Source: Candidatus Diapherotrites archaeon CG10_big_fil_rev_8_21_14_0_10_31_34 (GTDB lineage: Archaea; Iainarchaeota; Iainarchaeia; Iainarchaeales; 1-14-0-10-31-34). From it: a stretch of DNA of 16,803 bases. Location of the stretch: positions 1-16,803 of the forward strand of contig PFAI01000010.1 of NCBI GenBank assembly GCA_002763225.1, given 5' to 3'. The translations under genes were made by a program, and so were the position numbers. The number at the start of each line of letters is the position of its first letter. Position 1 is the first letter of the stretch. Below the pieces are notes generated by a model that saw only the letters and a program-made list of their open reading frames with translations, did not search any database and was not told where the DNA came from. Below, one piece after another: positions 1-16,803 of the stretch.

Positions 1-94
1 ATTTAAATGAAAAAAAACAAATTTAATGAGATCAAAGGAATTTAAATGAAAAAAAACAAATTTAATGAGATCAAAGGAATTTAAATGAAAAAAA
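1..94 (+). repeat. 39-bp perfect tandem repeat (~2.4 copies) overlapping the dxr start
   Basis: Unit ATTTAAATGAAAAAAAACAAATTTAATGAGATCAAAGGA at 1-39 and 40-78, plus a partial copy at 79-94 that contains the dxr ATG (85). Confidence 0.9.
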
Positions 95-1248
95 TAAGTT
101 TATTGGGTTCAACCGGAAGCATTGGAACACAGACACTGGACGTAATTAAAGGACATCCAAAAGAATTCAAAGTAATTGGCTTGGCTGCATTCAATGAAAC
201 AGAAAAAATTCTTGAACAAATAAAAGAATTCAGACCGGAAAAAGTTTGTTTGTTTGAAAAAAAAGCAGCAGAAGAATTAGAAAAAAAAATTGGAAAAGAA
301 GTTGAGGTTGTAAGCGGAATAAAAGGATTGGAAGAAATTGCAGTAATGCAGGAAGCTGAACAAGTTGTTGTTGCGGTTGTTGGGGCAATTGGGATAAAAC
401 CTACAATGAAAGCAATTCAAAAAAAGAAAAATGTTGCTTTAGCTAATAAAGAGACTTTGGTTGCAGCAGGACAACCAATAATGAAAGCAGTCAAAAAAAC
501 AGGAATTACTTTAATGCCAATTGATTCAGAGCACTCAGCTTTATTCCAGTGCTTAAACGGAGAAGAAAGAAACAAAATTTCAAAAGTATTAATTACTTGT
601 TCTGGAGGCCCATTCAGAGGAAAAAAAATTTCAGAATATTATAATTCCACTCCAGAACAGGCTTTAGGGCACCCGACATGGAGCATGGGATCAAAAATAA
701 CAGTTGATTCCAGTACTTTAATGAATAAAGGGCTGGAAGTAATTGAAGCAAAATGGCTTTATGATTTAAGTTTTGAAGAAATAAAAGTAATAGTTCATCC
801 TCAAAGCCTGATTCATTCAATGATAGAATTTGTTGACGGAAGCATTATGGCCCAGATTGGAACACATGACATGAGGACCCCGATTCAATATGCTTTAAGC
901 TATCCGAAAAGAATTCCAAATAATTTTCCAAGGCTTGACTTGTTTAAAGACAATAACCTGACTTTTGAAAAGCCTGATTTAGAAAATTTTCCCTGCTTAA
1001 AATATGCTTTTGAAGCAGGAAAAAAAGGGGGAACTTTGCCTGCAGTAATGAATGCAGCAAACGAAATTGCAGTCTGGAGTTTTCTGGATAAAAAAATTGC
1101 TTTTGGGAAAATTCCTGAAATAGTTAAAGAAGTGATGGATGAGCATAAAAACAGAAAAGCCGATTCAATTGAAACAGTTTTAGAAGCAGACAAAAAGGCA
1201 AGAGAAACAGCAAAAAAAATAATTGAAGAAACACAAAAAAAACAATAA
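85..1248 (+). CDS. dxr: 1-deoxy-D-xylulose-5-phosphate reductoisomerase
   Basis: 387 aa with the canonical motifs LGSTGSIG (NADPH), LANKE, PIDSEH, SGGPF, HPTWSMGSKITVDS, MNKGLEVIEA, HPQSLIHS and NAANE. Confidence 0.98.
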   Translation: MKKISLLGSTGSIGTQTLDVIKGHPKEFKVIGLAAFNETEKILEQIKEFRPEKVCLFEKKAAEELEKKIGKEVEVVSGIKGLEEIAVMQEAEQVVVAVVGAIGIKPTMKAIQKKKNVALANKETLVAAGQPIMKAVKKTGITLMPIDSEHSALFQCLNGEERNKISKVLITCSGGPFRGKKISEYYNSTPEQALGHPTWSMGSKITVDSSTLMNKGLEVIEAKWLYDLSFEEIKVIVHPQSLIHSMIEFVDGSIMAQIGTHDMRTPIQYALSYPKRIPNNFPRLDLFKDNNLTFEKPDLENFPCLKYAFEAGKKGGTLPAVMNAANEIAVWSFLDKKIAFGKIPEIVKEVMDEHKNRKADSIETVLEADKKARETAKKIIEETQKKQ

Positions 1249-1277
1249 AAGTAATTGAAGAACTGAACTGATAAAAA

Positions 1278-1439
1278 ATGGTTGAAAAAATTGAAATTTC
1301 AGCTGAATTAGTTGAAAGAGTTACCAGAACTTTTCTGAAAAAAATGACAGGGCATTTAAGAGGAACAAAAGTAGCAATAATGAATGCTACAATACAAGAA
1401 GGTTATAATCAATTTGTTGGGTTCCCCCAGAAAAGTTAA
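1278..1439 (+). CDS. Small hypothetical ORF, 53 aa (possibly the 5' half of a split gene with 1445..1723)
   Basis: Hand translation gives MVEKIEISAELVERVTRTFLKKMTGHLRGTKVAIMNATIQEGYNQFVGFPQKS*. It fills the gap after dxr on the same strand and is below the ORF-track length cutoff. Confidence 0.4.
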   Translation: MVEKIEISAELVERVTRTFLKKMTGHLRGTKVAIMNATIQEGYNQFVGFPQKS

Positions 1440-1444
1440 CTAAA

Positions 1445-1723
1445 ATGAATATCATACAGAGAATTGGAAGAGAAATTTCAAGAGAAATGGGAATAAACCC
1501 AAATGGTTCAACTAAAGAAAGGGAAAAATATAATAAAATAAAAATCAAGCTAAGGGGAAACGCAGCCACTGTTATACTAAACAACCCTGATTTAAGCAAA
1601 AAACTTGAAAAAATAATTAAAAGAAAAAAGTTTAAGTGGAGCACACAAATAGGGAATCATAAAAAATGGGGGCCAAGATTTGCAAAAGCAAGCAAATGGA
1701 TCAAAAAGAGAAGAAATTTATAA
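1445..1723 (+). CDS. Lys/Arg-rich hypothetical protein
   Basis: 92-aa ORF co-oriented within the MEP cluster; no recognisable motif. Confidence 0.55.
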   Translation: MNIIQRIGREISREMGINPNGSTKEREKYNKIKIKLRGNAATVILNNPDLSKKLEKIIKRKKFKWSTQIGNHKKWGPRFAKASKWIKKRRNL

Positions 1724-1755
1724 TTGAAAGCCATTAATAATAAAAGAGTGAAAAA

Positions 1756-2457
1756 ATGAATTATGCAGTAATTTGTGCCGGAGGAAAAGGAACCAGAATA
1801 AACGCAGGAAAAAACAAGGTGTTTGTTAAAATCAAAGGAAAAGAAATTATTTCAAGAACTATTCAGGTTTTTGAAAACGCAGAAAACATTAACGGAATAA
1901 TTATTTCAGCTGCAAAAGAAGATGAAAAAGAAATAAAAAAAATAATTGAAAGAGAAGGATTCAAAAAAGTTAAAGCAGTAGTTGAAGGCGGAAAACAAAG
2001 GCAGGATTCAGTCTGGAATGGAATAAAAAAATTAAAAGAAACAGCAAAAAAAGAAGACATTGTTTTGATTCATAATGCAGCAAACCCTTTTTTAGAAGAA
2101 AAAACAATCAATGAATGCATTAAAGAAGCAGAAAAATTCGGGGCAAGCGTTGCAGCACAAAAAGTTAAAGACACAATAAAAAGAGTTAATGAAGATTTGC
2201 TTGTAAAAGAAACTTTGAACAGAAAAGAATTATGGCAGATGCAGACGCCACAGACAATAATATTCCACATAGCATTAAAGGCATTTGAAAAAGCCTATAA
2301 AGAAAATTTTTACGGAACAGATGACGTGCAGTTAGTTGAAAGAATTCACGGAAAAATAAAAATAGTTGAATGCCCTTATGAAAACATCAAAATCACAACA
2401 CAAGAAGACATTGATTTAGCAAAAAAAATAATAGAAGAAAAAGAAGGGAAAAAATGA
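1756..2457 (+). CDS. ispD: 2-C-methyl-D-erythritol 4-phosphate cytidylyltransferase (IspD/TarI family)
   Basis: AGGKGTR..NK, GGKQRQDSV, KDTIK, QTPQ, TDD and NIKITT motifs; the usual HDxARP reads HNAANP; MEP gene context. Confidence 0.93.
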   Translation: MNYAVICAGGKGTRINAGKNKVFVKIKGKEIISRTIQVFENAENINGIIISAAKEDEKEIKKIIEREGFKKVKAVVEGGKQRQDSVWNGIKKLKETAKKEDIVLIHNAANPFLEEKTINECIKEAEKFGASVAAQKVKDTIKRVNEDLLVKETLNRKELWQMQTPQTIIFHIALKAFEKAYKENFYGTDDVQLVERIHGKIKIVECPYENIKITTQEDIDLAKKIIEEKEGKK

Positions 2458-2879
2458 ACAAAGGAAGAAAACCCTTTAACCCAAGAAAAAAGAAAAAAAC
2501 AAAAATTCCTTTTGATGTTGAATTAGCAAAAAAAATGAAAAACCTCGCACAGCAAAACGCAAAAGAAAAAGCAATGGGAATTAAAATAACAAACCAAAAA
2601 GCCAAAAACAAGTATTCAATAAAAGAACATTACCCTAAAACATTAAACTCCATCAGGCTGATTGAAAAAAGGAATGTTATTGCAAGAATAAATTACAATG
2701 GAATTGAATTATTAGTGGAACCAACACCATACCGAAACGGCCCAAAAATATTTGTTCAAACCCCTGAAGGAAAACACGTTGAAATAACAAGAAAAACAGA
2801 GAAGAAAATTATTGACCAAGTTTCAAAGATATATTATGACACCACCAGAGGAGGCGGAGTAGAGACAGCCACTGTATAA
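2454..2879 (+). CDS. Basic hypothetical protein
   Basis: 141-aa ORF with an ATGA overlap on the ispD stop (translational coupling) and a K/R-rich N-terminus. Confidence 0.65.
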   Translation: MNKGRKPFNPRKKKKTKIPFDVELAKKMKNLAQQNAKEKAMGIKITNQKAKNKYSIKEHYPKTLNSIRLIEKRNVIARINYNGIELLVEPTPYRNGPKIFVQTPEGKHVEITRKTEKKIIDQVSKIYYDTTRGGGVETATV

Positions 2880-2934
2880 AAATATTTTTATACATAAATA
2901 GTTTAGGAAAAAATTTACGAAAAAAAGTGATTTT

Positions 2935-3468
2935 ATGCCGTTTAAAGTAGGATTAGGACAGGATTCGCATAGGTTTTCTCATGTGCACGAAAAAAGAGAC
3001 TTATTTTTAGGCGGAGTGAAAATCAAAGGAGAAAGAGGATTAAAAGGGAATTCTGATGCAGATGTAATACTTCACGCATTATTTAATTCTCTTGCACAGA
3101 TTATCAGCTGGAAAAGCCTTGGAAACCACGCAGACAAAATGTGCAAAGAACAAGGAATAACTGATTCAAAAGAATATTTAAAAGAGCCATTAAAAAAACT
3201 AAAAGAAATGGATTATTTTATTACTACAGTAGGAATAACAATTGAATGCCAGAAACCAAAAATCGACCCTGTTTCAGATGAAATCAGGGAAAGCATTGCA
3301 AACATTCTGGGAATAAAACCAGAACAAGTCGGAATAATTGCTACCACAGGAGAAAGATTAACTGCTTTTGGGAAAGGAGAAGGAATACAGGTTTTCACTG
3401 TAATAACTGCAATACACAAAAACGTAAAAGATTTTGCAGAAAACAAAACAAAAAAGAAAAAAAAGTAA
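2935..3468 (+). CDS. ispF: 2-C-methyl-D-erythritol 2,4-cyclodiphosphate synthase
   Basis: VGLGQDSH (Zn ligands D and H), LGGV, SDADVILHA, PKI and ATTGE..GKGEGI motifs. Confidence 0.95.
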   Translation: MPFKVGLGQDSHRFSHVHEKRDLFLGGVKIKGERGLKGNSDADVILHALFNSLAQIISWKSLGNHADKMCKEQGITDSKEYLKEPLKKLKEMDYFITTVGITIECQKPKIDPVSDEIRESIANILGIKPEQVGIIATTGERLTAFGKGEGIQVFTVITAIHKNVKDFAENKTKKKKK

Positions 3469-3500
3469 TTCGTCTTTTGCCGAACTGCTGTTTTTATATT

Positions 3501-3517
3501 AACGTAAGCTTTAAATA
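3501..3517 (+). promoter_or_regulatory. Putative archaeal TATA-box promoter for dxs
   Basis: TTTAAATA at 3510-3517 preceded by purine-rich AACGTAAG; SD-like AGGAG at 3556-3560 ahead of the ATG at 3570. Confidence 0.4.
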
Positions 3518-3569
3518 CTTTGAGCTAGATTATTGATAGATAGAATAGCAAAAAAAGGAGCGTGTTTTA

Positions 3570-5363
3570 ATGGAATTAAAAGCAATTAAAACAGAGTTAC
3601 TGGAAAAAATTGACAGCCCAAAAGACTTAAAAAAATTAAAAGTAGAACAATTAAAGGAATTGTCTGATGAAATCAGAAGAGTTCTATTAAACACTTGTTC
3701 AGTTAACGGAGGCCATATTGGAGCAAATTTAGGGGTAGTGGAATTAAGTGTTGCACTGCATTATGTTTTTAATTCACCTGAAGACAAGTTTTTGTTTGAT
3801 ACAAGCCACCAAAGTTATACTCACAAAATTTTAACCGGAAGAAGAAAGTATTTTCACACTATCTGCATTCCAAAAGGAATTCCAAGGTTTACTGTAAGAG
3901 GAGAAACAGAACACGATCATTGGAGTGCAGGCCATGCTTCAACTGCTTTAAGCGGGGCAATGGGAATGGCTGAAGCAAGAAAAACAAACAAAAAAGAATA
4001 TGAAGTAATTGCAATTACAGGAGACGGAGCATTAGGAGGAGGAATGTGCTATGAAGCATTAAACAACATTGGCTATAATCAGACAAACATGATAATTATT
4101 TTAAATGACAATAAAATGAGCATTTCGTCTAATGTAGGGGCAATGTACAAGCATTTAAAAAAACTTTCAATGATTACAGATGAAAACAGGGGCAGAAGAG
4201 AAGTCGGAACAATCTTTGAAAAAATGGGAATACAATATTATGGGCCATTTGACGGGCACAACATCGAAAAATTAGTTGAAGAACTGGAAAGAATAAAGGA
4301 TTTGTCTGGGCCAAGATTAATTCATGTATTAACCATTAAAGGAAAAGGAATGGATTACATGGAAAACGATAAAGCAAACTGGCACGAGCATTCAGCTTTT
4401 GATATTGAAACAGGAGAGCCAACAAAAAAAAGTCCTGTTTCAATTGAAAAAATTGCAGTAGAAGACTTAATTAAATTAGCTGAAAAAGATTCAAAAGTTG
4501 TTGCAATAACTGCCGCAATGCCTGCAGGAACAGGCTTGCTAAAATTCGGAGAAAAATTCCATGAAAGATTTTATGACGTGGGAATAGCAGAAGAACACGC
4601 AGTTACTTTTGCAGCAGGATTAGCAGCAGAAGAAACAAAACCTTTTGTAGTAATTTACAGTCCTTTCCTGCAAAGAGGATTTGACCAGATAGCACATGAT
4701 GTTGCATTACAAAAACTTCCTGTAAGATTTATGATTCCAAAAGCTTCAATTACCGGAGACGGCCCAACACAAGGAGGAATACTTGATTTCAGTTATCTGA
4801 GAATTATTCCTAATATGGTTGTAATGGCACCAAAAGATGAAAACGAATTAGGGAACATGGTTGTAACAGCCTATGAATACAATGACGGCCCAATAAGTGT
4901 AAGATACCCAAAAGGAACTCCAATAGGAGTAGAAATAAAAGAATCAAAAGCATTAGAAATAGGAAAAGGAGAAATGATTAGAAAAGGAAAAGACATTTCA
5001 CTGATAAGCATTGGTTTTATGTTAAAAGAAACAAATGAAGCAGCAGAAATTTTAAAGAAAGAAGGAATTGAAGCAGAAGTAATTAATGCAAGATTTGTAA
5101 AACCATTAGATGAAAAAATGATTTGTGATTCACTGAAAAAAACAGGAAAAGGAATTACAATAGAAGAAAATATTTTACCTGGCGGGTTTGGTTCAGCTGT
5201 ATTAGAAATGCTTGAAGATAAAGGATTAAATGAAGTTGAACTGCACAGAATTGGCGCACCAGATGCATATATTGATTATGATGCTCCTGCAGAAATCAAG
5301 AAAAGCTTTGGAATGGATTCAAAAAGCATTGCAAAAAAGGCAAAAAAAATGCTGGGAAAATAA
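3570..5363 (+). CDS. dxs: 1-deoxy-D-xylulose-5-phosphate synthase (divergent, short-linker type)
   Basis: GGHIGANLGVVEL, HQSYTHKILTGR, GHASTA, ThDP motif GDGA..EALNN..ILNDN, ITAAM, DVGIAEEHAV, FLQR.FDQ, DGPT, and C-terminal ARFVKPLD / EEN..GGFGS. Confidence 0.95.
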   Translation: MELKAIKTELLEKIDSPKDLKKLKVEQLKELSDEIRRVLLNTCSVNGGHIGANLGVVELSVALHYVFNSPEDKFLFDTSHQSYTHKILTGRRKYFHTICIPKGIPRFTVRGETEHDHWSAGHASTALSGAMGMAEARKTNKKEYEVIAITGDGALGGGMCYEALNNIGYNQTNMIIILNDNKMSISSNVGAMYKHLKKLSMITDENRGRREVGTIFEKMGIQYYGPFDGHNIEKLVEELERIKDLSGPRLIHVLTIKGKGMDYMENDKANWHEHSAFDIETGEPTKKSPVSIEKIAVEDLIKLAEKDSKVVAITAAMPAGTGLLKFGEKFHERFYDVGIAEEHAVTFAAGLAAEETKPFVVIYSPFLQRGFDQIAHDVALQKLPVRFMIPKASITGDGPTQGGILDFSYLRIIPNMVVMAPKDENELGNMVVTAYEYNDGPISVRYPKGTPIGVEIKESKALEIGKGEMIRKGKDISLISIGFMLKETNEAAEILKKEGIEAEVINARFVKPLDEKMICDSLKKTGKGITIEENILPGGFGSAVLEMLEDKGLNEVELHRIGAPDAYIDYDAPAEIKKSFGMDSKSIAKKAKKMLGK

Positions 5364-6209
5364 TTACAGGAAATCCCTTGTTTTTTTCCAATCTAAATTT
5401 AGTTCTTCACAAAAAGAAATTATTTTATTTCTTTGTTCTGCAATTAAGCCTTTCCAGTCAATCAAAACAAGAGAAACAGGTTCAAAAGTTTTTTCAATCA
5501 TTTGCCTGAACAAATTTAAGTCAATTTCATCAACATAATATTTTGAAAGGATATGAGATAAAGCTAATTCAGTTCTTTCCTCTATTTTAGAGAATTCAGG
5601 GCAATAATGAGTTCCTCCAATTCCAATAGCTGTTTTGAAACCTGAATTAAAATTTGAAAAAGAATTCATTATTGTTTCAGCTAAAATTTTGCCTGCTGAT
5701 TGGTTTTGCCATTGTTCTTCTGAACTTCCAATTTCAATGTAAACGCATGGTTTTGATAAGAAAGGGCCGTGATGGGTTTGCTCCATTAAAACAGGAAAAT
5801 CAAATTTTTTTTCTTTTACTTTTTTAACTAAATTCAAATAAAAGTTTTTCAGCACAAGAGAAGAAGTTTTTACAAGAGTTTTGTCTTTTCCCCCTAATTC
5901 TGCTTTGGAAAAGTTTCCGATTGAATGCACTGAAAGGCAGGGCTTTTTTGTTTCACTTGAATGCTTTGAAGCAAAAACAATTAAGTCAGTTTCCAGTTCA
6001 TTTAAGTAATCAGCAAAAACCTGTTTCTGGTTAATAAAAACTAAATCAAAAGAATTTTTTTCATTTGAAAAAGAATAAACTGAATTCAAGTCAAAAGACT
6101 TTTCTGTTTCCTTGAAATTAAATTTTTTAATTAAATGCCCTGCAATATTTATTCCGGCTGGATCAGTTTTGGAAACAATAACTGAAATTTTTTTAAACTG
6201 CATAAACAA
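5364..6209 (-). CDS. dtdA: D-aminoacyl-tRNA deacylase, archaeal DTD2 type
   Basis: SKTDPAG, FASKHSS, LSVHSIGNF, EQTHHGP, IEIGS and GIGGTHY motifs of the archaeal/plant DTD2 (GEK1) family. Confidence 0.93.
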   Translation of the reverse strand: MFMQFKKISVIVSKTDPAGINIAGHLIKKFNFKETEKSFDLNSVYSFSNEKNSFDLVFINQKQVFADYLNELETDLIVFASKHSSETKKPCLSVHSIGNFSKAELGGKDKTLVKTSSLVLKNFYLNLVKKVKEKKFDFPVLMEQTHHGPFLSKPCVYIEIGSSEEQWQNQSAGKILAETIMNSFSNFNSGFKTAIGIGGTHYCPEFSKIEERTELALSHILSKYYVDEIDLNLFRQMIEKTFEPVSLVLIDWKGLIAEQRNKIISFCEELNLDWKKTRDFL

Positions 6210-6243
6210 AAAAAAGAAGAATTGTTTTTTTATAGCTTGTTAA

Positions 6244-6726
6244 TCATTTTTTATAGCTTGAAGCTAACTCAAAAAAAACTTCTTCTAAATGAGTTAAAGT
6301 AGAAGAAATGTTTTTTGTGATATAATGATTAAAAGAGGCTTTCAAATCATCTCTTTCAGCTAAAGGTGCTGGGTTGAATAAATACATTTGATTTTTCCTG
6401 ATTAATAAATCTGTTTCTTTCATCCGATTTAAATGATAATGCAAAAGCTTTTCTGAAATGTTTTTTGAATGCTTTTTTTTAATATAAGATTGGATTTCGG
6501 AAACCGTTGGATTAGAATTCTTTGAAAGGTTTAGATAAAAAAGTGCGTCAAGAACATCTAAAACAGTTGTGCGAGATTCTTTTTCCGAGATTAAGCCAAA
6601 AGCCAAAGCAAACCAGCGAAGCATTGAACGCCTTGTAAGTTTTACATTTGGAGGCAAATCCATTGTTCTGATTGTGAAAGTTTTTCTAATTAAAGAGCTT
6701 TCAGGCAGTTCAGACATAACAATCAC
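6244..6726 (-). CDS. Conserved archaeal hypothetical protein with a winged-helix-like domain
   Basis: RWFALAFGLI..ESR followed by the HTH-like TVSEI...SEKLLHYHLNRMKETDLLIR; the real start is probably the ATG at 6717. Confidence 0.7.
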   Translation of the reverse strand: MIVMSELPESSLIRKTFTIRTMDLPPNVKLTRRSMLRWFALAFGLISEKESRTTVLDVLDALFYLNLSKNSNPTVSEIQSYIKKKHSKNISEKLLHYHLNRMKETDLLIRKNQMYLFNPAPLAERDDLKASFNHYITKNISSTLTHLEEVFFELASSYKK

Positions 6727-6894
6727 TAAGGAAAAAATGTTTTTCCTTCAGAAATAAAGTGTTTTCAAGTATTTATTTGTTTTTGTTTTTAAGTAAACAG
6801 GAAAAAACTGAAAAAGACTAAAAAATAAAGTTTAAATTAAGTTCATGTCATATAATTTAACTGATTCTTTGTTGATTAAAAGGGGGAGAAGTTT

Positions 6895-7257
6895 ATGAGT
6901 ATTGCAATTAATACAAATTTTGTGCCGTTTAAACTGGATTTGCAGGAAAAAAAGCCTGTCAGAATGGATATAGAAGTAATTAACCGTTACCTGGAACCAA
7001 AAAAAATCAGAATAGAAATTGTTGCAGGAAGCCAATTAGGATTAAATAAAACCAGTTCAGAAAAAGAAAACTTTGAATTAGGAGTATTAAACCCCGGAGA
7101 AAACAAAATGATTAATCTGGATGTATTCCCAAAAAATTTTGCAATAAAAGGAGAACAAAAAATAGGAATTATTGCAACAGAAATAACAATAGAAAAATCA
7201 GGTTATGCATATCCTTCAAAAAAATTCAGAAAAATAGTTGAACTGCAGATAAAATAA
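6895..7257 (+). CDS. Hypothetical protein, probable beta-sandwich (Ig/CARDB-like)
   Basis: 120 aa with SD GGGGAG upstream, alternating beta-strand pattern and an LGVLNPGE motif. Confidence 0.65.
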   Translation: MSIAINTNFVPFKLDLQEKKPVRMDIEVINRYLEPKKIRIEIVAGSQLGLNKTSSEKENFELGVLNPGENKMINLDVFPKNFAIKGEQKIGIIATEITIEKSGYAYPSKKFRKIVELQIK

Positions 7258-7280
7258 AATTATTTTGTTTTAAAATAAAA

Positions 7281-7481
7281 TTATTTTTTTCCTTTTTTGC
7301 CTTTTGGTTTTTCCAAGTCAGTGTCTTCAAAAAAGTCTTCCCTGTCTTCTTCATCTAAACCAAGTTTTGCAAGCATGTTATTGTGGTCTTCTGGAGTAAG
7401 TTTGTTATACCATTCCTGCCATACTTTGTCTTCGGCTTTGGAAATCACTTTTCCTTCAACAGGTTTTTTTCTTCTAAGCAT
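7281..7481 (-). CDS. Small hypothetical protein
   Basis: 66 aa with natural-looking composition: basic termini, acidic core, WQEWY and LAKLGL. Confidence 0.6.
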   Translation of the reverse strand: MLRRKKPVEGKVISKAEDKVWQEWYNKLTPEDHNNMLAKLGLDEEDREDFFEDTDLEKPKGKKGKK

Positions 7482-7572: not shown

Positions 7573-8181
7573 ATGGATAAAATCATTTCAGACATTCAAA
7601 AAAAACAAAACATTATTTTGATTATTCCGGAAGAAAAATACCAGAATACTTTAATGATGTTATTAGAGCAACTGGAAAAAGAAAAGAAAAACATTTGTTT
7701 TGTTTCAGCAAACAAAACAAAAGATGCATTAGAAAAAGAATTAAAAGAAAAAAAGATTTCAACAGAAAAAATCTTTTTTGTGGATTGTGTAAGCAAAAGC
7801 ATTTCAAAAGGAAAAATTTCCTGGAGCGATGAAAAAACACAATATATTGATAACCCTACTTCTTTAACTCAAATAAGTTTAGCTATATTCAAATTAATGG
7901 AAAATACTAAAATAGATTTTCTTGTATTGGATTCAATTAACACTTTATTGATTTACAACGAAGAAAAAGAAATACTGAAGTTTGTTCACCATACTACGGC
8001 AAAATTAAAGGCAAACAATATAACAGGAATTTTTACTTCACTAAAAGAAGGGATAAATGAAAAATCATTGAAAAATTTCTCCCAGTTTGTAGACAAAATA
8101 ATTGAATCAGATCCTCCAGTGCAAAAAGAATTTGTAAGAAAAAAAGGCCCGCTGGATTCGTTCGAAGAAATCAAATTGTGA
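7573..8181 (+). CDS. RecA/KaiC-superfamily ATPase-like domain protein (probably inactive, archaeal type)
   Basis: CFVSANK, FFVDCVS, P.SLTQIS, Walker-B-like FLVLDSINTLLIYN and FVDKII; no Walker A; TTTAAA TATA-like element upstream. Confidence 0.75.
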   Translation: MDKIISDIQKKQNIILIIPEEKYQNTLMMLLEQLEKEKKNICFVSANKTKDALEKELKEKKISTEKIFFVDCVSKSISKGKISWSDEKTQYIDNPTSLTQISLAIFKLMENTKIDFLVLDSINTLLIYNEEKEILKFVHHTTAKLKANNITGIFTSLKEGINEKSLKNFSQFVDKIIESDPPVQKEFVRKKGPLDSFEEIKL

Positions 8182-9821: not shown

Positions 9822-10391
9822 TTAAATTACTTCAATTAAAACTGAAGGAGAAGTTCTGGCATCATCAGCTGTTTCCATTATAACCATAATATGATTAAAA
9901 CCAGAAGGCAATTCAATTGAAAATTCCCATAAGTTTTCAGGGCTTGGCCCAACTGTTTGCAAATAAATCCAATCGACATCATCAACTGAATAATAAATTT
10001 TTACTGCATGAACTTCAGAAAAATCAGTAAGGCCATGGTTTTCCACAGCAACATAAACTGGATTGCTTACAATGTTTCCGTCTTCCGGATGAATAATAAT
10101 TGGCTGAATTGTCAAACAACCTGGTTCAGGACCTTGTTTAAACAAATAATTAACTAAAAAAGTTAAATCATCAACAAAAACATATCCATCTCCATTGACA
10201 TCAGCAACATATAATAAAAAAGGAGCAGGGCCCTGTTTAAACAAATAATTAACTAAAAAAGTTAAATCATCAACAAACACGTGTCCGTCTTGGGTAACAT
10301 CACCACAAACAAGCGAAGCATTAGTAAAAGAACCAAAAAATAAAAATAAAACTAAAACACTGAAAAATTTTTTATTCATTTCAAAAACCAA
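9822..10391 (-). CDS. Secreted dockerin type I-like domain protein with an Ig-like C-terminus
   Basis: Signal peptide (likely start ATG 10379, MNKKFFSVLVLFLFF) and two EF-hand-like repeats, GDVTQDGHVFVDDLTFLVNYLF and ADVNGDGYVFVDDLTFLVNYLF. Confidence 0.8.
   Translation of the reverse strand: MVFEMNKKFFSVLVLFLFFGSFTNASLVCGDVTQDGHVFVDDLTFLVNYLFKQGPAPFLLYVADVNGDGYVFVDDLTFLVNYLFKQGPEPGCLTIQPIIIHPEDGNIVSNPVYVAVENHGLTDFSEVHAVKIYYSVDDVDWIYLQTVGPSPENLWEFSIELPSGFNHIMVIMETADDARTSPSVLIEVI
10135..10277. repeat. 44-bp identical direct repeat within the dockerin gene
   Basis: TGTTTAAACAAATAATTAACTAAAAAAGTTAAATCATCAACAAA at 10135-10178 and 10234-10277 (99-bp offset). Confidence 0.9.
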
Positions 10392-11442: not shown

Positions 11443-12765
11443 ATGAAACAAAAAGTTTTTTTGTTTGGATTTCTTTTTATCTTGCTGTTTTTTTCTGGCT
11501 GCACTGATTTTCTGAAGGAAATTGAATCCGGACCAGGCAAATTTGATTTTTTTAATTCAAATTTTTTTGGAAGCGACATTAATTTTTTTGATGAATTCAT
11601 TGAACAAGGTTTTTGCCCTGAAGGCCGGAGAAGTTTTGAAGGAAAATGCATTCCAATAATTGAATGCATTGACGGCACTCTTGAACCTGATTGTTCCGCA
11701 GAAAAACCTTTTCAATGCATTAATGAAGTGCTTGTTGAAAACAGTTTTTTGTGCGGCTGCCCTTTTAATTTTAAGCCTGATGCAAATAAATGCGTTGAAA
11801 TCCAGCGCTGTGTTGATAATACAGAATATGGAAGCTGCAGTTCAGTTAAGCCTGTTTTCTGTGAACAAGGAAACCTTGTAAACAAAGCCAGTTTTTGTGG
11901 CTGCCCTGAATTCAACAAAACACGCAAGGAAGCCTGTGAATTTGATTTTAGCATAACTTCAATTCAAAGAAAACTTGATTTTGTGTTAAGAGGAGAAAAA
12001 AAAGTTTTATTGTTTTCAATGCAGTCTGAGCTAAAAAAAAATCTTGCAGGAATTTCAAGAACATATTATTGTAATTCTGGCTGTCCGACAGACAAAAAAC
12101 TGATTTTAAGGTTTTTAGATGAAAAAAACCAGAAAAATGAGTTGCTGAAGCTGGTTGAATTGATTAAAATGCATTCAACTGAACCGGATGACAGGGCAAG
12201 AATTGCTGTCAGTTTAGTGCAAAGAATTCCTTATGACTGGACAAAATTCACTGAAGAAAGATCCCAGGAAAGATATCCTTTTGAGGTTGTCTTTGATTAT
12301 GCAGGAGTATGCGGGGAAAAATCCAAACTGCTTGTTTTTTTGCTGCGGGAATTAGGTTATAATACTGCAATATTTGATTTTAAAACAGAAAACCACCGGG
12401 CTGTTGGAATAAAATGCCCTTTAAAATACAGCTACAATAATTCAGGTTATTGTTTTATTGAATCAACTGCCCCCACAATAATAACTGATTCCAGTGGAGA
12501 CTATGTGAACACAGGAAAACTTCTGTCAGAGCCAAAAATAATTGAATTAAGTGAAGGAAATTCTTTTGACAGTGTTTCAGAAGAGTCCCTTGATTTAGCT
12601 GAACTAACAAAACTTAATGAACTGAAATCAATGAACCAAAAAGAATATGCGAGATGGAAGGAAATAACCAAAAAATACTTTTTAGTGGATTCAGAAGAAC
12701 TTTCAAGTGAAAGCCCTGAAAACATCAAAGCATTAATTGAATCAATTAAATCAAAACTAAACTGA
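11443..12765 (+). CDS. Lipoprotein with Cys-rich repeats and a transglutaminase-like (Cys protease fold) domain
   Basis: Lipobox-like LFFSGC; two CxDxTxxxxCSxxKPxxC...LV....CGCP repeats; SLVQRIPYD, RYPFEV..GVCGEKS..LRELGY, NHRAVGI and FIEST (Cys-His-Glu triad). Confidence 0.8.
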   Translation: MKQKVFLFGFLFILLFFSGCTDFLKEIESGPGKFDFFNSNFFGSDINFFDEFIEQGFCPEGRRSFEGKCIPIIECIDGTLEPDCSAEKPFQCINEVLVENSFLCGCPFNFKPDANKCVEIQRCVDNTEYGSCSSVKPVFCEQGNLVNKASFCGCPEFNKTRKEACEFDFSITSIQRKLDFVLRGEKKVLLFSMQSELKKNLAGISRTYYCNSGCPTDKKLILRFLDEKNQKNELLKLVELIKMHSTEPDDRARIAVSLVQRIPYDWTKFTEERSQERYPFEVVFDYAGVCGEKSKLLVFLLRELGYNTAIFDFKTENHRAVGIKCPLKYSYNNSGYCFIESTAPTIITDSSGDYVNTGKLLSEPKIIELSEGNSFDSVSEESLDLAELTKLNELKSMNQKEYARWKEITKKYFLVDSEELSSESPENIKALIESIKSKLN

Positions 12766-14333: not shown

Positions 14334-15254
14334 ATGAAAGAAGAGTATTCTGATATAGCAAAAAAACTTGATTCAAATCAAATCCAGAACAAGCCGATTT
14401 TAGATATTTCTGCAAAATTTTGGGATGAAGAAAGATATCTTGCTTCAAAAAAATTATACAAGCCAATGAGGTTGATGGATGATTTAGTTGACAACAGGAA
14501 AGCTTTAAGCGAAATAAGTGAAACAGAAAAAGAGCAATTCTCTGGAGTAATTAATGCTTGGGTTGAATCAATTAACCAGGGAAAGCCTCAGGATGAAATC
14601 CAAAAACAATTAATTGAAACAATAGAAGAATTCAGAATCCCTTTTTGGCCTTGGCAGGATTTCGCCAAAGCAATGGTTTATGACATAAAAAATAATGGAT
14701 TTAAATCTTTTCAGGATTTTCTGGATTACACTGAAGGCGCAGCAGTTGCGCCGGCAGCAATTGCATTGCATTTAGCTGGAGTAAAAAAGCATAATGGAAA
14801 TTTTATACCCCCAAGTTATAATATAAAGAAAGCCGCAAGGTCTATTGCAACTTTTTGTTATTTGGTCCATATTATCAGGGACTTTCAAAAAGACCAGTCA
14901 AGCAACTTAAATTATTTTGCTGAAGACTTAATTTTAGAAAATGGCTTAACTAAAAAAGCTTTAAAGCAAATGGCTAACGGAAAGAAAAAAAGCAAGCAAT
15001 TCAGGAATTTAATGAAAAAATATTATTCTTTTGCTGAAGACTACAAAAACAAGGCAGTCCATGCAATAAATGAAATAAGCAGTTCAATGGAGCCAAGATA
15101 TAAGTTAAGTTTAGAAATTGCATTTAATTTGTATTTACAGGTATTTGAAAAAATCAATATTTCTAAGGGAAACTTTACTTCGGAAGAATTAAATCCTTCT
15201 CCTCAGGAAATAAAAGAAATAATTAACAAGACAATCACAGAAACAAAAGAATGA
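14334..15254 (+). CDS. Squalene/phytoene synthase family protein (head-to-head isoprenoid synthase)
   Basis: First Asp-rich motif MRLMDDLVD, F..AM.YD, F.DF.DY.EGAAVA and second motif LVHIIRDFQKD. Confidence 0.85.
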   Translation: MKEEYSDIAKKLDSNQIQNKPILDISAKFWDEERYLASKKLYKPMRLMDDLVDNRKALSEISETEKEQFSGVINAWVESINQGKPQDEIQKQLIETIEEFRIPFWPWQDFAKAMVYDIKNNGFKSFQDFLDYTEGAAVAPAAIALHLAGVKKHNGNFIPPSYNIKKAARSIATFCYLVHIIRDFQKDQSSNLNYFAEDLILENGLTKKALKQMANGKKKSKQFRNLMKKYYSFAEDYKNKAVHAINEISSSMEPRYKLSLEIAFNLYLQVFEKINISKGNFTSEELNPSPQEIKEIINKTITETKE

Positions 15255-15873: not shown

Positions 15874-15882
15874 GTGTTTCTC

Positions 15883-16803
15883 ATGAATATGTTGTGCCCA
15901 ATAATTAATAATGATTTTGGAAAACTTGTTGAGCGAGTTTTCAACGAGTGTAGAGTTCCTTTCAGGAACTCAAAGTACTCAAACCATGTTTATAGCAACT
16001 TTGTGCATGTGTACTGTTTAGTGTACAAGGAAAGACTAAATGTTTCTTATCGAAGATTTGAACGCATAGCAAAAGACTTGCAGTTAAACAGACTGTTAGC
16101 AGTCAAAAGTGTTCCTCATTTTAGTACTTTGCAAAAGTTTTTGCAAAGAATGCAAAAAGATTTATTCAGAAAACTGGTTAGAGTTTGTCATAAACTTTTA
16201 AAACTCAAAAACTTGCAGTGCTCAATAGATTCAACTGGAATCTCTTTGACTAATCCTTCTGCTCATTATCTTAAAAGAGTTGATTCAGTGAAAGTCAAAA
16301 ACTTCACTAAAACCTCGTTAAATGTAGAAAACAACCATAAAATCATTTTAGACATTCAAACGCATACTGAAAGATGTCACGACACTAAAGACTTTATTCC
16401 TCTGCTGAAAAACTTGTGTTCTGTTTCTTTGGTTTTGGCCGATAAAGCGTATGATTCAACAAAAAACTTGAAATATGTTTTAGAAGAACTTAAAGCTGAA
16501 CCTCAGATTCCAGTTAGACAATGGAAACAACAAAGATACAAATATGGGTTTAAGCCTTTAGTGCATGGAAAACTCAGAAGAAAAATGCTTGAAGAGTTTG
16601 ATGAAAAAAAATATTCTAAAAGAAACATAGTTGAAAGCATCAACTCAGCTTTAAAAAGAACTTTAGGTTCTTGGGTTTGCTCACGCAAACCAAAAAACCA
16701 AGAAAAACAAGTAATAATAAAAGCACTGGCTTACAACTTGGAAATCATAACAGTCAAAGGCTTACTCAAAATAAAAGCATTGTTCCTGTGCTTCCGCACA
16801 GGA
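15883..16803 (+). CDS. IS5-family (DDE_Tnp_1-type) transposase, 3' end beyond the window
   Basis: Open frame of 307 codons from ATG 15883 with no stop: SYRRF, VPHFSTLQKF, IDSTG (D1), HD, LADKAYDS (D2) and YSKRNIVESINSALKR (Y-R-E-K, E). Confidence 0.93.
   Translation, partial: MNMLCPIINNDFGKLVERVFNECRVPFRNSKYSNHVYSNFVHVYCLVYKERLNVSYRRFERIAKDLQLNRLLAVKSVPHFSTLQKFLQRMQKDLFRKLVRVCHKLLKLKNLQCSIDSTGISLTNPSAHYLKRVDSVKVKNFTKTSLNVENNHKIILDIQTHTERCHDTKDFIPLLKNLCSVSLVLADKAYDSTKNLKYVLEELKAEPQIPVRQWKQQRYKYGFKPLVHGKLRRKMLEEFDEKKYSKRNIVESINSALKRTLGSWVCSRKPKNQEKQVIIKALAYNLEIITVKGLLKIKALFLCFRTG

Follow-up and report, generated by a model that had tools for sequence, protein, structure and literature searches.

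A bacterial-type methylerythritol phosphate gene cluster in the mevalonate-operon slot of a genus of Iainarchaeota

The split between the mevalonate (MVA) and the methylerythritol phosphate (MEP) pathways is a textbook difference between archaea and bacteria, and it has been used in arguments about the lipid divide and about the last universal common ancestor. Here we describe a cluster of four MEP genes (dxr, ispD, ispF and dxs) in a 16,803-nucleotide stretch of DNA, called the window throughout, which is the entire contig C36 (PFAI01000010.1) of the genome of CG10_big_fil_rev_8_21_14_0_10_31_34, a Candidatus Diapherotrites archaeon (genome hereafter G000; 1,044,951 bases in 65 contigs, estimated completeness 81.49%, contamination 0.55%). 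The cluster occupies the place in which the sister genera g2-g4 of the same family (f1) carry an MVA operon. It is likely that in the genus of the window (g1) a complete bacterial-type MEP pathway replaced this operon in place, with genes obtained from another Iainarchaeote.

The MEP pathway has been met in DPANN archaea before. Its presence in "a few DPANN archaea" was ascribed to horizontal transfer (PMC6107057). Castelle et al. (2021; PMC8204110) described a 52-genome Woesearchaeota clade with co-located MEP genes, and Huang et al. (2021; PMC8421398) placed the pathway in Woesearchaeota subgroups F and J, with a fused ispDF in most of J. A study of 2025 (PMC12892359) reported the complete pathway in three orders of Micrarchaeota (Norongarragalinales, Zaosheniarchaeales and Micrarchaeales), described it as "formerly only detected in Woesearchaeales", and ascribed it to horizontal transfer after the orders had diversified. 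Iainarchaeota are described as MVA users in passages of PMC6107057 and PMC10936187, the archaeal-type MVA pathway being the one with the phosphomevalonate dehydratase AcnX, a UbiD-type decarboxylase and isopentenyl phosphate kinase (IPK; PMC11052028).

MEP genes of the phylum are nevertheless on record in the supplementary tables of Castelle et al. (2021). Table S3 gives the IspH family in a fraction of 0.12 of 25 Diapherotrites genomes, and Table S4 has entries for ispE, ispH, dxr and ispD on scaffold S_p1_S3_coassembly_k141_2249774, our locus L007 (genome G178), classed there as Diapherotrites; the main text credits the pathway to the Woesearchaeota clade. A first-pass annotation of the window, made from its sequence, had suggested that the pathway might be undescribed in this lineage, and in view of these tables that wording was too strong. 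Our literature search returned no paper on MEP in Iainarchaeota, or on an archaeal MVA-to-MEP swap, beyond those cited here.

MEP genes between the flanks of a mevalonate operon

The four MEP genes are co-oriented open reading frames (ORFs), each scoring above the cut-off of an NCBIfam model, so that the first-pass reading of four such genes in an archaeal, DPANN-like genome was borne out. They are followed by DTD2 and by three further genes that recur as anchors at related loci:

85-1248, plus strand: dxr, encoding Dxr (step 2); NF009114 528.1 bits (cut-off 461), TIGR00243 508.7 bits, three Pfam Dxr domains
1756-2457, plus strand: ispD, MEP cytidylyltransferase (step 3); TIGR00453 206.6 bits (cut-off 181.3), PF01128 199.9 bits
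2935-3468, plus strand: ispF, methylerythritol cyclodiphosphate (MEcPP) synthase (step 5); TIGR00151 148.1 bits (cut-off 116.45), PF02542 140.4 bits
3570-5363, plus strand: dxs, deoxyxylulose phosphate (DXP) synthase (step 1), in a clade-specific variant; TIGR00204 714.2 bits (cut-off 465.95)
5364-6209, minus strand: DTD2, archaeal-type D-aminoacyl-tRNA deacylase, which anchors the slot on the right; PF04414 218 bits
6244-6726, minus strand: orf160, a conserved Iainarchaeota protein, possibly winged helix; anchor gene
6895-7257, plus strand: orf120, anchor gene; syntenic in loci of g1, of g2-g4 and of families f11, f12 and f32
7573-8181, plus strand: KaiC/DUF7504-like ATPase, anchor gene; PF24336 38.2 bits; syntenic in g1 and in genome G017

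The motifs GSTGSIG, DSEH and NKGLE were seen in the dxr translation. For DTD2 the best NCBIfam model is NF003072, at 237.3 bits and under its cut-off of 272. The genes for the other three steps were located on two further contigs of G000:

C16:22596-23420: ispE (step 4); TIGR00154 248.1 bits (cut-off 138.7)
C16:21365-22543: ispG (step 6); TIGR00612 378.5 bits (cut-off 280.25)
C5:4549-5382: ispH (step 7); TIGR00216 326.1 bits (cut-off 187.85)

All seven enzymes of the pathway are present in G000 over curated NCBIfam cut-offs, split over three places. The first-pass annotation had supposed that ispE, ispG and ispH might lie upstream of the window, and PPDK was found there instead. The neighbours of ispG and ispE on C16 are NMD3, a beta-CASP nuclease, an ADP-forming acetyl-CoA-synthetase-type ATP-grasp protein and GARS with a LAGLIDADG insert; those of ispH on C5 are Fur, peroxiredoxin, SOD and ferritin.

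The gene order of the window is shared within g1. In genomes G011, G013, G014 and G015 the genes run (dxr) ispD, ispF, dxs, then DTD2 and orf160 on the opposite strand, then orf120 and the KaiC-like gene, with products 58-86% identical in amino acids to those of the window. To the left, the last ~90 bases of contig C20 are the same as positions 1-90 of the window, and C20 therefore adjoins its start. This contig carries genes for a PfkB kinase, orf134 and orf90 and, on the minus strand, for a 904-residue PPDK. In G013 and in G015 a single contig has the same four genes immediately upstream of dxr, and G014 has orf134, orf90 and PPDK in this position, with the kinase only as a short fragment at the edge of the stretch examined.

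In the sister genera, represented by G016, G017 and G018, the same anchors (DTD2, orf160 and orf120; the kinase, orf137 and an orf90-like gene) enclose a co-oriented operon of 12.6 kb. In G017 this operon has 13 genes in the order HMGR, HMGS, thiolase, DUF35, two genes without a family match, MVK, UbiX, UbiD, AcnX large, AcnX small, IPK and IDI2, and its NCBIfam scores are 455 bits for class II HMGR, 523 for HMGS, 548 for thiolase, 230 for MVK, 209 for UbiX, 361 for the UbiD-family decarboxylase, 220 for IPK and 393 for IDI2. By these assignments the operon is predicted to encode the whole archaeal-type MVA pathway. The gene that DTD2 faces convergently is the last MEP gene in g1; in the sister genera it is IDI2, with which the MVA operon ends. 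On the other flank, PPDK lies divergently upstream of HMGR on one contig of G083 (family f12), which matches its place upstream of dxr in g1.

Non-orthologous gene displacement in situ is recognized by conserved flanks with unrelated genes of the same role between them. This is the arrangement found when g1 is compared with g2-g4 and G083, both flanks being homologous and the enclosed genes unrelated and of the same role. That the cluster sits in the place of the ancestral mevalonate operon had escaped the first-pass annotation. Within the G017 operon, the two genes between DUF35 and MVK (L136:8087-10151; 231 and 448 residues) are without a family match; the 448-residue gene has counterparts in the operons of G148, described below (48%), and of G018, where it is on the opposite strand (34%).

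As the MEP pathway is typically bacterial, the possibility of an artefact had to be weighed, in which a bacterial MEP contig, for example from the candidate phyla radiation, was mis-binned or joined chimerically to archaeal DNA at 5363/5364. Parcubacteria do carry a similar seven-gene cluster at loci L010 and L011 (ispH-dxr-ispDF-ispE-ispG-uppS-dxs, the ispH end of L010 lying outside the DNA examined), between the bacterial flanks YceG, Pth, EngA, LytR and signal peptidase I (S26). We regard the artefact as highly improbable. The junction and its flanks (dxs, DTD2, orf160, orf120) recur in the four further g1 assemblies named above, and a 2-kb fragment of a fifth genome (L008/G012) has dxs convergent with DTD2 and shows nothing more. 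The junction is also bridged by contigs of two other groundwater runs (X3, 5301-7300; X4, 5199-7300). The genome of G179 is a single 1.05-Mb contig holding both an MEP cluster and the archaeal RNA polymerase, and contig C1 of G015 holds the MEP cluster, GGGPS and IDI2 together. Base composition is uniform, G+C being 0.30-0.35 in the cluster, 0.27-0.355 in the window and 0.287-0.336 in the other 64 contigs, and the contamination estimate of G000 is low, as given above.

The setting itself is archaeal, with DTD2 on the window, NMD3 beside ispG and ispE, RpoB split into B'' and B', and CarS; an SSU rRNA gene sought in G000 for classification had not been assembled. The nearest Dxs proteins in named genomes are those of L007 ("Candidatus Iainarchaeum archaeon", 64%; genome G178, of the same order as the window) and L008 ("Candidatus Micrarchaeota archaeon", 83%; genome G012, of the same genus). 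Both genomes were matched to their loci by identical hit coordinates. The NCBI label of G012 is thus that of another phylum, yet its order is shared with a genome assigned to Diapherotrites. Through relatives so classed by others, the source genome is placed in Iainarchaeota/Diapherotrites, which is the lineage that had been guessed from the window. The contig is not bacterial, the dxs/DTD2 junction is not chimeric, ispE, ispG and ispH are present, and the MEP genes are no binning artefact.

The hallmarks of the MVA pathway are absent from g1. HMGR, MVK and IPK were each found in none of its six species, five of whose genomes are 90-96% complete, the weak MVK matches being ispE. In g2-g4, HMGR and IPK are over the cut-off in 3/3 genera and MVK in two of the three, with 127 bits in the third. 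IDI2 was retained, away from the cluster, in all six g1 species, and it is present in 3/3 of the sister genera. When the 13 MVA-operon proteins of G017 were compared with G000 (tblastn, E <= 1e-3), IDI2 alone gave a match; no MVA relics were found in the g1 slot, where the best tblastn E-value was 0.01. Conversely, ispG and ispH were each found in 0/3 of the sister genera, and dxs had no match there at E <= 1e-60.

Enzymes downstream of the pathway have been kept in the genus. G000 encodes a GGPPS/IdsA-like prenyl synthase truncated at the edge of its contig, a UbiA protein for which DGGGPS is the top-scoring model (178.9 bits, under the cut-off of 296) and CarS (148.6 bits), and GGGPS is present in all five other g1 species (143-151 bits). 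A weak GGGPS match on contig C22 of G000 (18.8 bits) appeared HisF-like by eye and was left out of the count. In our reading, the MEP pathway would have taken over from the MVA pathway as the source of isopentenyl diphosphate (IPP) and dimethylallyl diphosphate (DMAPP) in g1, and these would feed the archaeal lipid enzymes, namely the GGPP-synthase-like prenyl synthase, GGGPS, the DGGGPS-like UbiA and CarS.

A partial or repurposed pathway would make different sense of the same genes: DXP or MEP intermediates could serve thiamine, pyridoxal or signalling, while isoprenoids were scavenged or came from MVA genes in the unassembled 19% of the genome. G000 is indeed only 81% complete, DPANN archaea often scavenge lipids, glycerol-1-phosphate (G1P) dehydrogenase is mostly missing from the genus, and the Dxs motif is unusual. 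However, seven of seven MEP genes score over cut-off, the three MVA hallmarks are missing from all six species including the nearly complete ones, MEP genes fill the slot where relatives have the MVA operon, with no relics of it found there, and the genes for the GGPPS-like, GGGPS, DGGGPS-like and CarS enzymes are retained. We therefore give repurposing only a slim chance.

Pathway distribution and a second exchange in the phylum

The distribution of the two pathways was surveyed in 215 species representatives of the phylum. A match to ispG was obtained in 32 genomes (31 over cut-off), dxs and ispH were over cut-off in 28 genomes each, and HMGR was found in 131. By a comparison of these tables, the cut-offs for ispG, dxs and ispH are all exceeded in 23 genomes; HMGR was present in none of these, as against 131 of the 192 others. 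Only G072, G077 and G125 have ispG (over cut-off) and HMGR together, and dxs is without a match at E <= 1e-60 in all three; the IspG of G125 is an orphan. In that genome (L134, C1:636000-655999) the distance between ispG and a second, divergent HMGR-like gene is 3.5 kb. Neither ispG nor HMGR was detected in 55 genomes, for example those of families f2 and f8. The state of the pathway varies within families: in f1 between g1 and g2-g4, in f30 between g69 and g70, and in f14 between G149 and G148.

The last pair shows a second swap between close relatives. G148 (MVA) and G149 (MEP) both belong to genus g48, and their flanks are shared at 65-90% amino-acid identity, with a 469-residue protein (77%), a 361-residue protein (75%) and IDI2 (81%) on the left and six genes including DTD2 (65-90%) on the right. 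Between these flanks G148 has an insert of ~15 kb with genes for a GltD-like protein, HMGR, HMGS, thiolase, DUF35, MVK (215 bits), diphosphomevalonate decarboxylase (309 bits), a GHMP kinase and PMK (234 bits), which by its gene content would be a eukaryote-type MVA route. The insert of G149, ~10.3 kb, consists of ispE, ispH, IMPase, dxr, ispD, ispF, dxs, ispG, Pta and TIM. Three alternative routes (archaeal-type MVA, eukaryote-type MVA and MEP) are thereby found at one locus within the order. The phosphotransacetylase of the G149 cassette is of bacterial type (TIGR00651, 335.5 bits), and together with the triose-phosphate isomerase (L128:5821-7510) it gave no tblastn match in the compared 40 kb of the syntenic G148 region.

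Clustered MEP genes were observed in other Iainarchaeota as well. G022 has ispH, dxr, ispD, ispF, ispE, ispG and dxs within 7 kb. In G173 the genes dxr-ispD-ispF-dxs-ispG-ispH face orf160, with ispE divergent. In two genomes of family f32 (G179 and G182) ispE and ispH on the minus strand are followed by dxr, ispD, ispF, dxs and ispG, and G186 and L007/G178 show subsets of the f32 order in the DNA examined. At each of the four f32 loci an IDI2 gene separates the MEP cluster from orf160. It shares 45-53% identity with the terminal gene of the MVA operon, and by its position and likeness it may be read as a relic that has stayed in place. Against this background the g1 arrangement looks like a derived, broken-up version of the clustered Iainarchaeota MEP genes.

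Among the nearest Dxs loci outside these genomes such clusters were rare, in keeping with the first-pass remark that MEP clustering is unusual: 75 of the 77 nearest loci not titled archaeal show dxs alone in the DNA examined. A metagenome-assembled genome titled "archaeon" (L012; G217, 2.3 Mb) has all seven genes together in the contiguous order ispG-dxs-dxr-ispD-ispF-ispE-ispH. At the end of this cluster (L012:10416-12317) IspH and a polyprenyl synthase form one fusion protein (633 residues; PF02401 and PF00348), and a UPP synthase gene lies ~1.3 kb beyond the fusion on the opposite strand.

The sharing of anchors by the two pathways would also be expected if the ancestor of the order had carried MVA and MEP genes side by side, with differential loss afterwards and no transfer between Iainarchaeota. 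The IDI2 common to both arrangements, the single clade formed by Iainarchaeota Dxs proteins (see below) and the three genomes with both ispG and HMGR are all compatible with such a coexistence. Against it, the full MEP set coincides with HMGR in 0/23 genomes, and the three mixed genomes have no dxs match at the threshold given above. In addition, G148 and G149 differ within one genus, so that both operons would have had to persist until very recently and be followed by at least five losses.

Trees, transfer and the variant Dxs

A tree of concatenated RpoB'', RpoB' and RpoA' (29 genomes, 1286 columns, LG+G4, with support from the Shimodaira-Hasegawa-like approximate likelihood ratio test only) gave the topology (g2,((g3,g4),g1)) with supports of 99, 95, 97 and 100, placing g1 among the MVA genera of f1. 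Families f28, f30 and f32 formed a clade (96), and G149 was sister to G148 (100). When the MEP or MVA label was mapped on this tree, seven changes were counted, at least five of them required by well-supported branches; an archaeal lineage's choice of IPP pathway can thus flip repeatedly within one archaeal order, with at least five changes among 29 genomes.

Dxs was analysed in a quick tree of 86 rows and a careful one of 24 rows, after removal of six partial rows (L133, L008, L066, L034, L036 and L085). In the careful tree the Iainarchaeota proteins belong together: 12 of 12 rows fall in one clade (94/84), with a core of ten at 100/100, and the MEP sets of G149 and G022 are more divergent than this core. 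Within the core, g1 groups with G173 (f30) and G178 (f32, g72), with g73 outside (98/96). Forcing the f30 and f32 rows into a group without g1 cost 19.0 log-likelihood units (p of 0.034 in the approximately unbiased test), a result which is suggestive, as it is marginal and the group was named after the first tree. The IspH of g1 is 55% identical to that of G173 and 28-30% to the g72 and g73 proteins. The grouping of g1 Dxs with f30 and f32 is unlike the RNA polymerase tree and, with the IspH identities, speaks against the ancient coexistence of both operons raised above, which we judge unlikely.

A bacterium might also have donated the four-gene cluster straight to g1, independently of other Iainarchaeota. 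The order dxr-ispD-ispF is common to Parcubacteria, whose Dxr is 50-55% identical, just as in Iainarchaeota of other families. In contrast, the Dxs of g1 is 58-65% identical to that of f27, f30 and f32 and at most 51% to other representatives of 50%-identity clusters (of 1.84 billion), P0001 (81%) being the only one of them above 51% to the window protein and having the same variant motif. The motif PK..TQGG is shared by g1 and its clade, the clade has 100/100 support, and Parcubacteria Dxs stands apart. A direct bacterial donation to g1 is thus very improbable. Parcubacteria were considered as the specific donors of the Iainarchaeota genes and set aside, their gene order being alike but their Dxs grouping apart; in the Dxs trees no bacterial sister group was supported, and Parcubacteria Dxs fell outside the Iainarchaeota clade.

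We favour the view that the core MEP set of Iainarchaeota came once, long ago, from bacteria and then spread between Iainarchaeota into the homologous slot, as judged from the trees and the gene orders. Lateral acquisition of these genes had been proposed in the first-pass annotation and agrees with this reading. Since the g1 genes are nested in an Iainarchaeota clade that keeps six or seven MEP genes at or around the same anchor, their source would be another Iainarchaeote, most likely by recombination at the conserved flanks. In g1, ispG/ispE and ispH would have moved elsewhere later, and the ultimate origin of the MEP genes would be bacterial.

The Dxs of the window is itself divergent. In the alignment it keeps the GDG...NDN motif, which we take to be the one binding thiamine diphosphate, together with GGH and AEEH. 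At residues 388-407, on the other hand, it reads PKAS..DGPTQGG, as against DR[AG]G..DGxTHHG in 73/73 bacterial rows, so that it departs from the nearly invariant DR[AG]G...DGxTH[HQ]G motif while its membership in the family by hidden Markov model (HMM) holds. The core clade (g1, G178, G173 and g73) has PKA[AS]ITG-DGPTQGG, G149 is intermediate, and DR[AG]G[LI]VGxDGxTHHG is also found in Parcubacteria, L012 and G022. The motif was found by regular expression in 142 of the 150 best representatives, and in these the His is changed only in P0001 and P0141; the variant of the window is shared by P0001 alone, a member of this clade. The altered positions presumably correspond to the Arg and His near the glyceraldehyde-3-phosphate site of E. 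coli Dxs. Since the variant is conserved across three sampled families (f1, f30 and f32) and the genomes concerned are without the MVA pathway, the enzyme is probably active, and its divergent motif offers a concrete target for enzymology.

Several points weigh against the replacement of the MVA operon by genes of another Iainarchaeote. The RNA polymerase tree comes from a quick search only, the bacterial rows of the Dxs trees are the best 80 Dxs matches only, and the test of g1 nesting is marginal as said. Both trees were built from sequences other than named Woesearchaeota and Micrarchaeota ones, and the MEP genes may have a shared DPANN origin. The linkage of the slot across the phylum (HMGR and orf160 on a shared contig at a distance of 2-21 kb in 44 genomes from 17 families; dxs and orf160 separated by 1-7 kb in 16 of the 28 genomes that bear dxs) was counted by comparing coordinate tables by hand. 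On the side of lipid synthesis, GGGPS was not found in G000, at 81% completeness, and G1P dehydrogenase was found in one of the six g1 species only, so that the archaeal route is incomplete on paper; the latter count agrees with the loss of this enzyme in a common ancestor with Iainarchaeota proposed in PMC12892359. Finally, MEP function is assigned by homology, no RNA runs holding the locus were listed, and the loss of Arg and His (R to K, H to Q) could shift the kinetics of Dxs or even its substrate. From the gene content, synteny and distribution shown above we infer that the enzymes are active and supply the lipids, and likewise which way and by what mechanism the genes were transferred.

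Taking the loci together, we tentatively suggest, at slightly less than even chances, that the IPP locus of Iainarchaeales is an exchangeable cassette, in which archaeal-type MVA, eukaryote-type MVA and MEP genes swap beside IDI2, DTD2 and orf160, likely by recombination at the flanks between related cells, with the acceptor site of Dxs remodelled in the MEP cassette. Exchange at shared flanks would let species of one genus differ in a pathway that is usually regarded as defining a domain.

Further features of the window and relation to known systems

Three further features lie within or beside the cluster:

1-84, no strand assigned: 39-base tandem repeat, ~2.2 copies, each unit repeating the dxr start region; read from the sequence
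1445-1723, plus strand: orf92, very basic small ORF whose status as a gene is doubtful
2454-2879, plus strand: orf141, lysine-rich small ORF between ispD and ispF; variable insert

Each copy of the repeat holds a TTTAAA box and an ATG resembling the dxr start, and the repeat might be a duplicated promoter or start region; because it is also present at the end of C20, it accounts for the contig break before dxr. For orf92 no family match was obtained in two family scans, and no tblastn match in any related locus examined; contigs of three other runs carry a variant with a 40-base insertion inside it, at 1605. For orf141 no family matched, and its sole homologue among the related loci is in G014 (36%). 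The gap between ispD and ispF is ~77 bases without orf141 in G011 and G015, and in G013 it holds an insert of another kind of ~960 bases. Both ORFs are rich in lysine and arginine and differ between species and strains, and they are treated here as variable inserts and not as parts of the pathway.

The anchor gene orf160 gave a weak match to HTH_12 (17 bits), and the commonest label of the ESM Atlas clusters nearest to it is Candidatus Iainarchaeota. It is present in 163/215 genomes of the phylum, beside either MVA or MEP genes, and nearly always within a few kb of the genome's IPP pathway operon, whichever pathway that is. A role as an MEP-specific regulator is ruled out by its presence in MVA-bearing genomes; it may be a regulator of another scope or merely a stable neighbour.

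Towards the end of the window a squalene/phytoene-synthase family gene (14334-15254, plus strand; PF00494 75.6 bits) is divergent, with two DxxxD motifs in its translation, and lies near an IS5 transposase (15874-16803) at the contig end. In G015, PEBP and orf141b are ~400 bases apart without such a gene between them, and it would therefore be an accessory consumer of prenyl diphosphates. A dockerin-domain protein (9822-10391, minus strand) adjoins a Cys-rich, secreted-looking protein of 440 residues (11443-12765, plus strand), which had no family match and is conserved in G014 (77%). The GARS gene near ispG on C16 (purD-like; L004:16818-19193, 791 residues) has its LAGLIDADG domain in mid-protein, probably as an intein.

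Compared with described systems, the locus resembles the MEP genes of Woesearchaeota in being bacterial-type and co-located, and, by the interpretation given to both, horizontally acquired and supplying precursors of membrane lipids (PMC8204110, PMC8421398). It differs in having ispD and ispF as distinct ORFs, parted by an insert, whereas the accounts of subgroup J give mostly a fused ispDF. It also belongs to another phylum, its g1 genes are in three places with the main cluster in a former MVA slot, and the UbiA and fatty-acid neighbours given for Woesearchaeota are absent, two family scans of the 19 window ORFs having shown no UbiA or Fab genes. The Micrarchaeota reported in PMC12892359 share with it a complete pathway in a DPANN lineage near Iainarchaeota, and the text consulted makes no claim of replacement at one locus. 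The Diapherotrites entries of Castelle et al. (2021) concern the same phylum and genes and stand as table rows, without analysis of MVA loss, position or distribution. The archaeal-type MVA pathway is the one displaced here; its enzymes are non-homologous to those of MEP, and IDI2 alone is kept in g1. Finally, non-orthologous displacement concerns a single gene, whereas a whole multi-gene pathway is exchanged at this locus.

The presence of MEP genes in DPANN archaea was thus already known, and what is added is the positional replacement of the MVA operon, seen twice independently among close relatives, together with a near-perfect mutual exclusion of the two pathways across the phylum and a Dxs variant peculiar to the clade. 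Close relatives differ only in the pathway that fills one slot, so that the locus provides a natural, replicated before-and-after comparison, and pathway displacement in archaea becomes directly testable.

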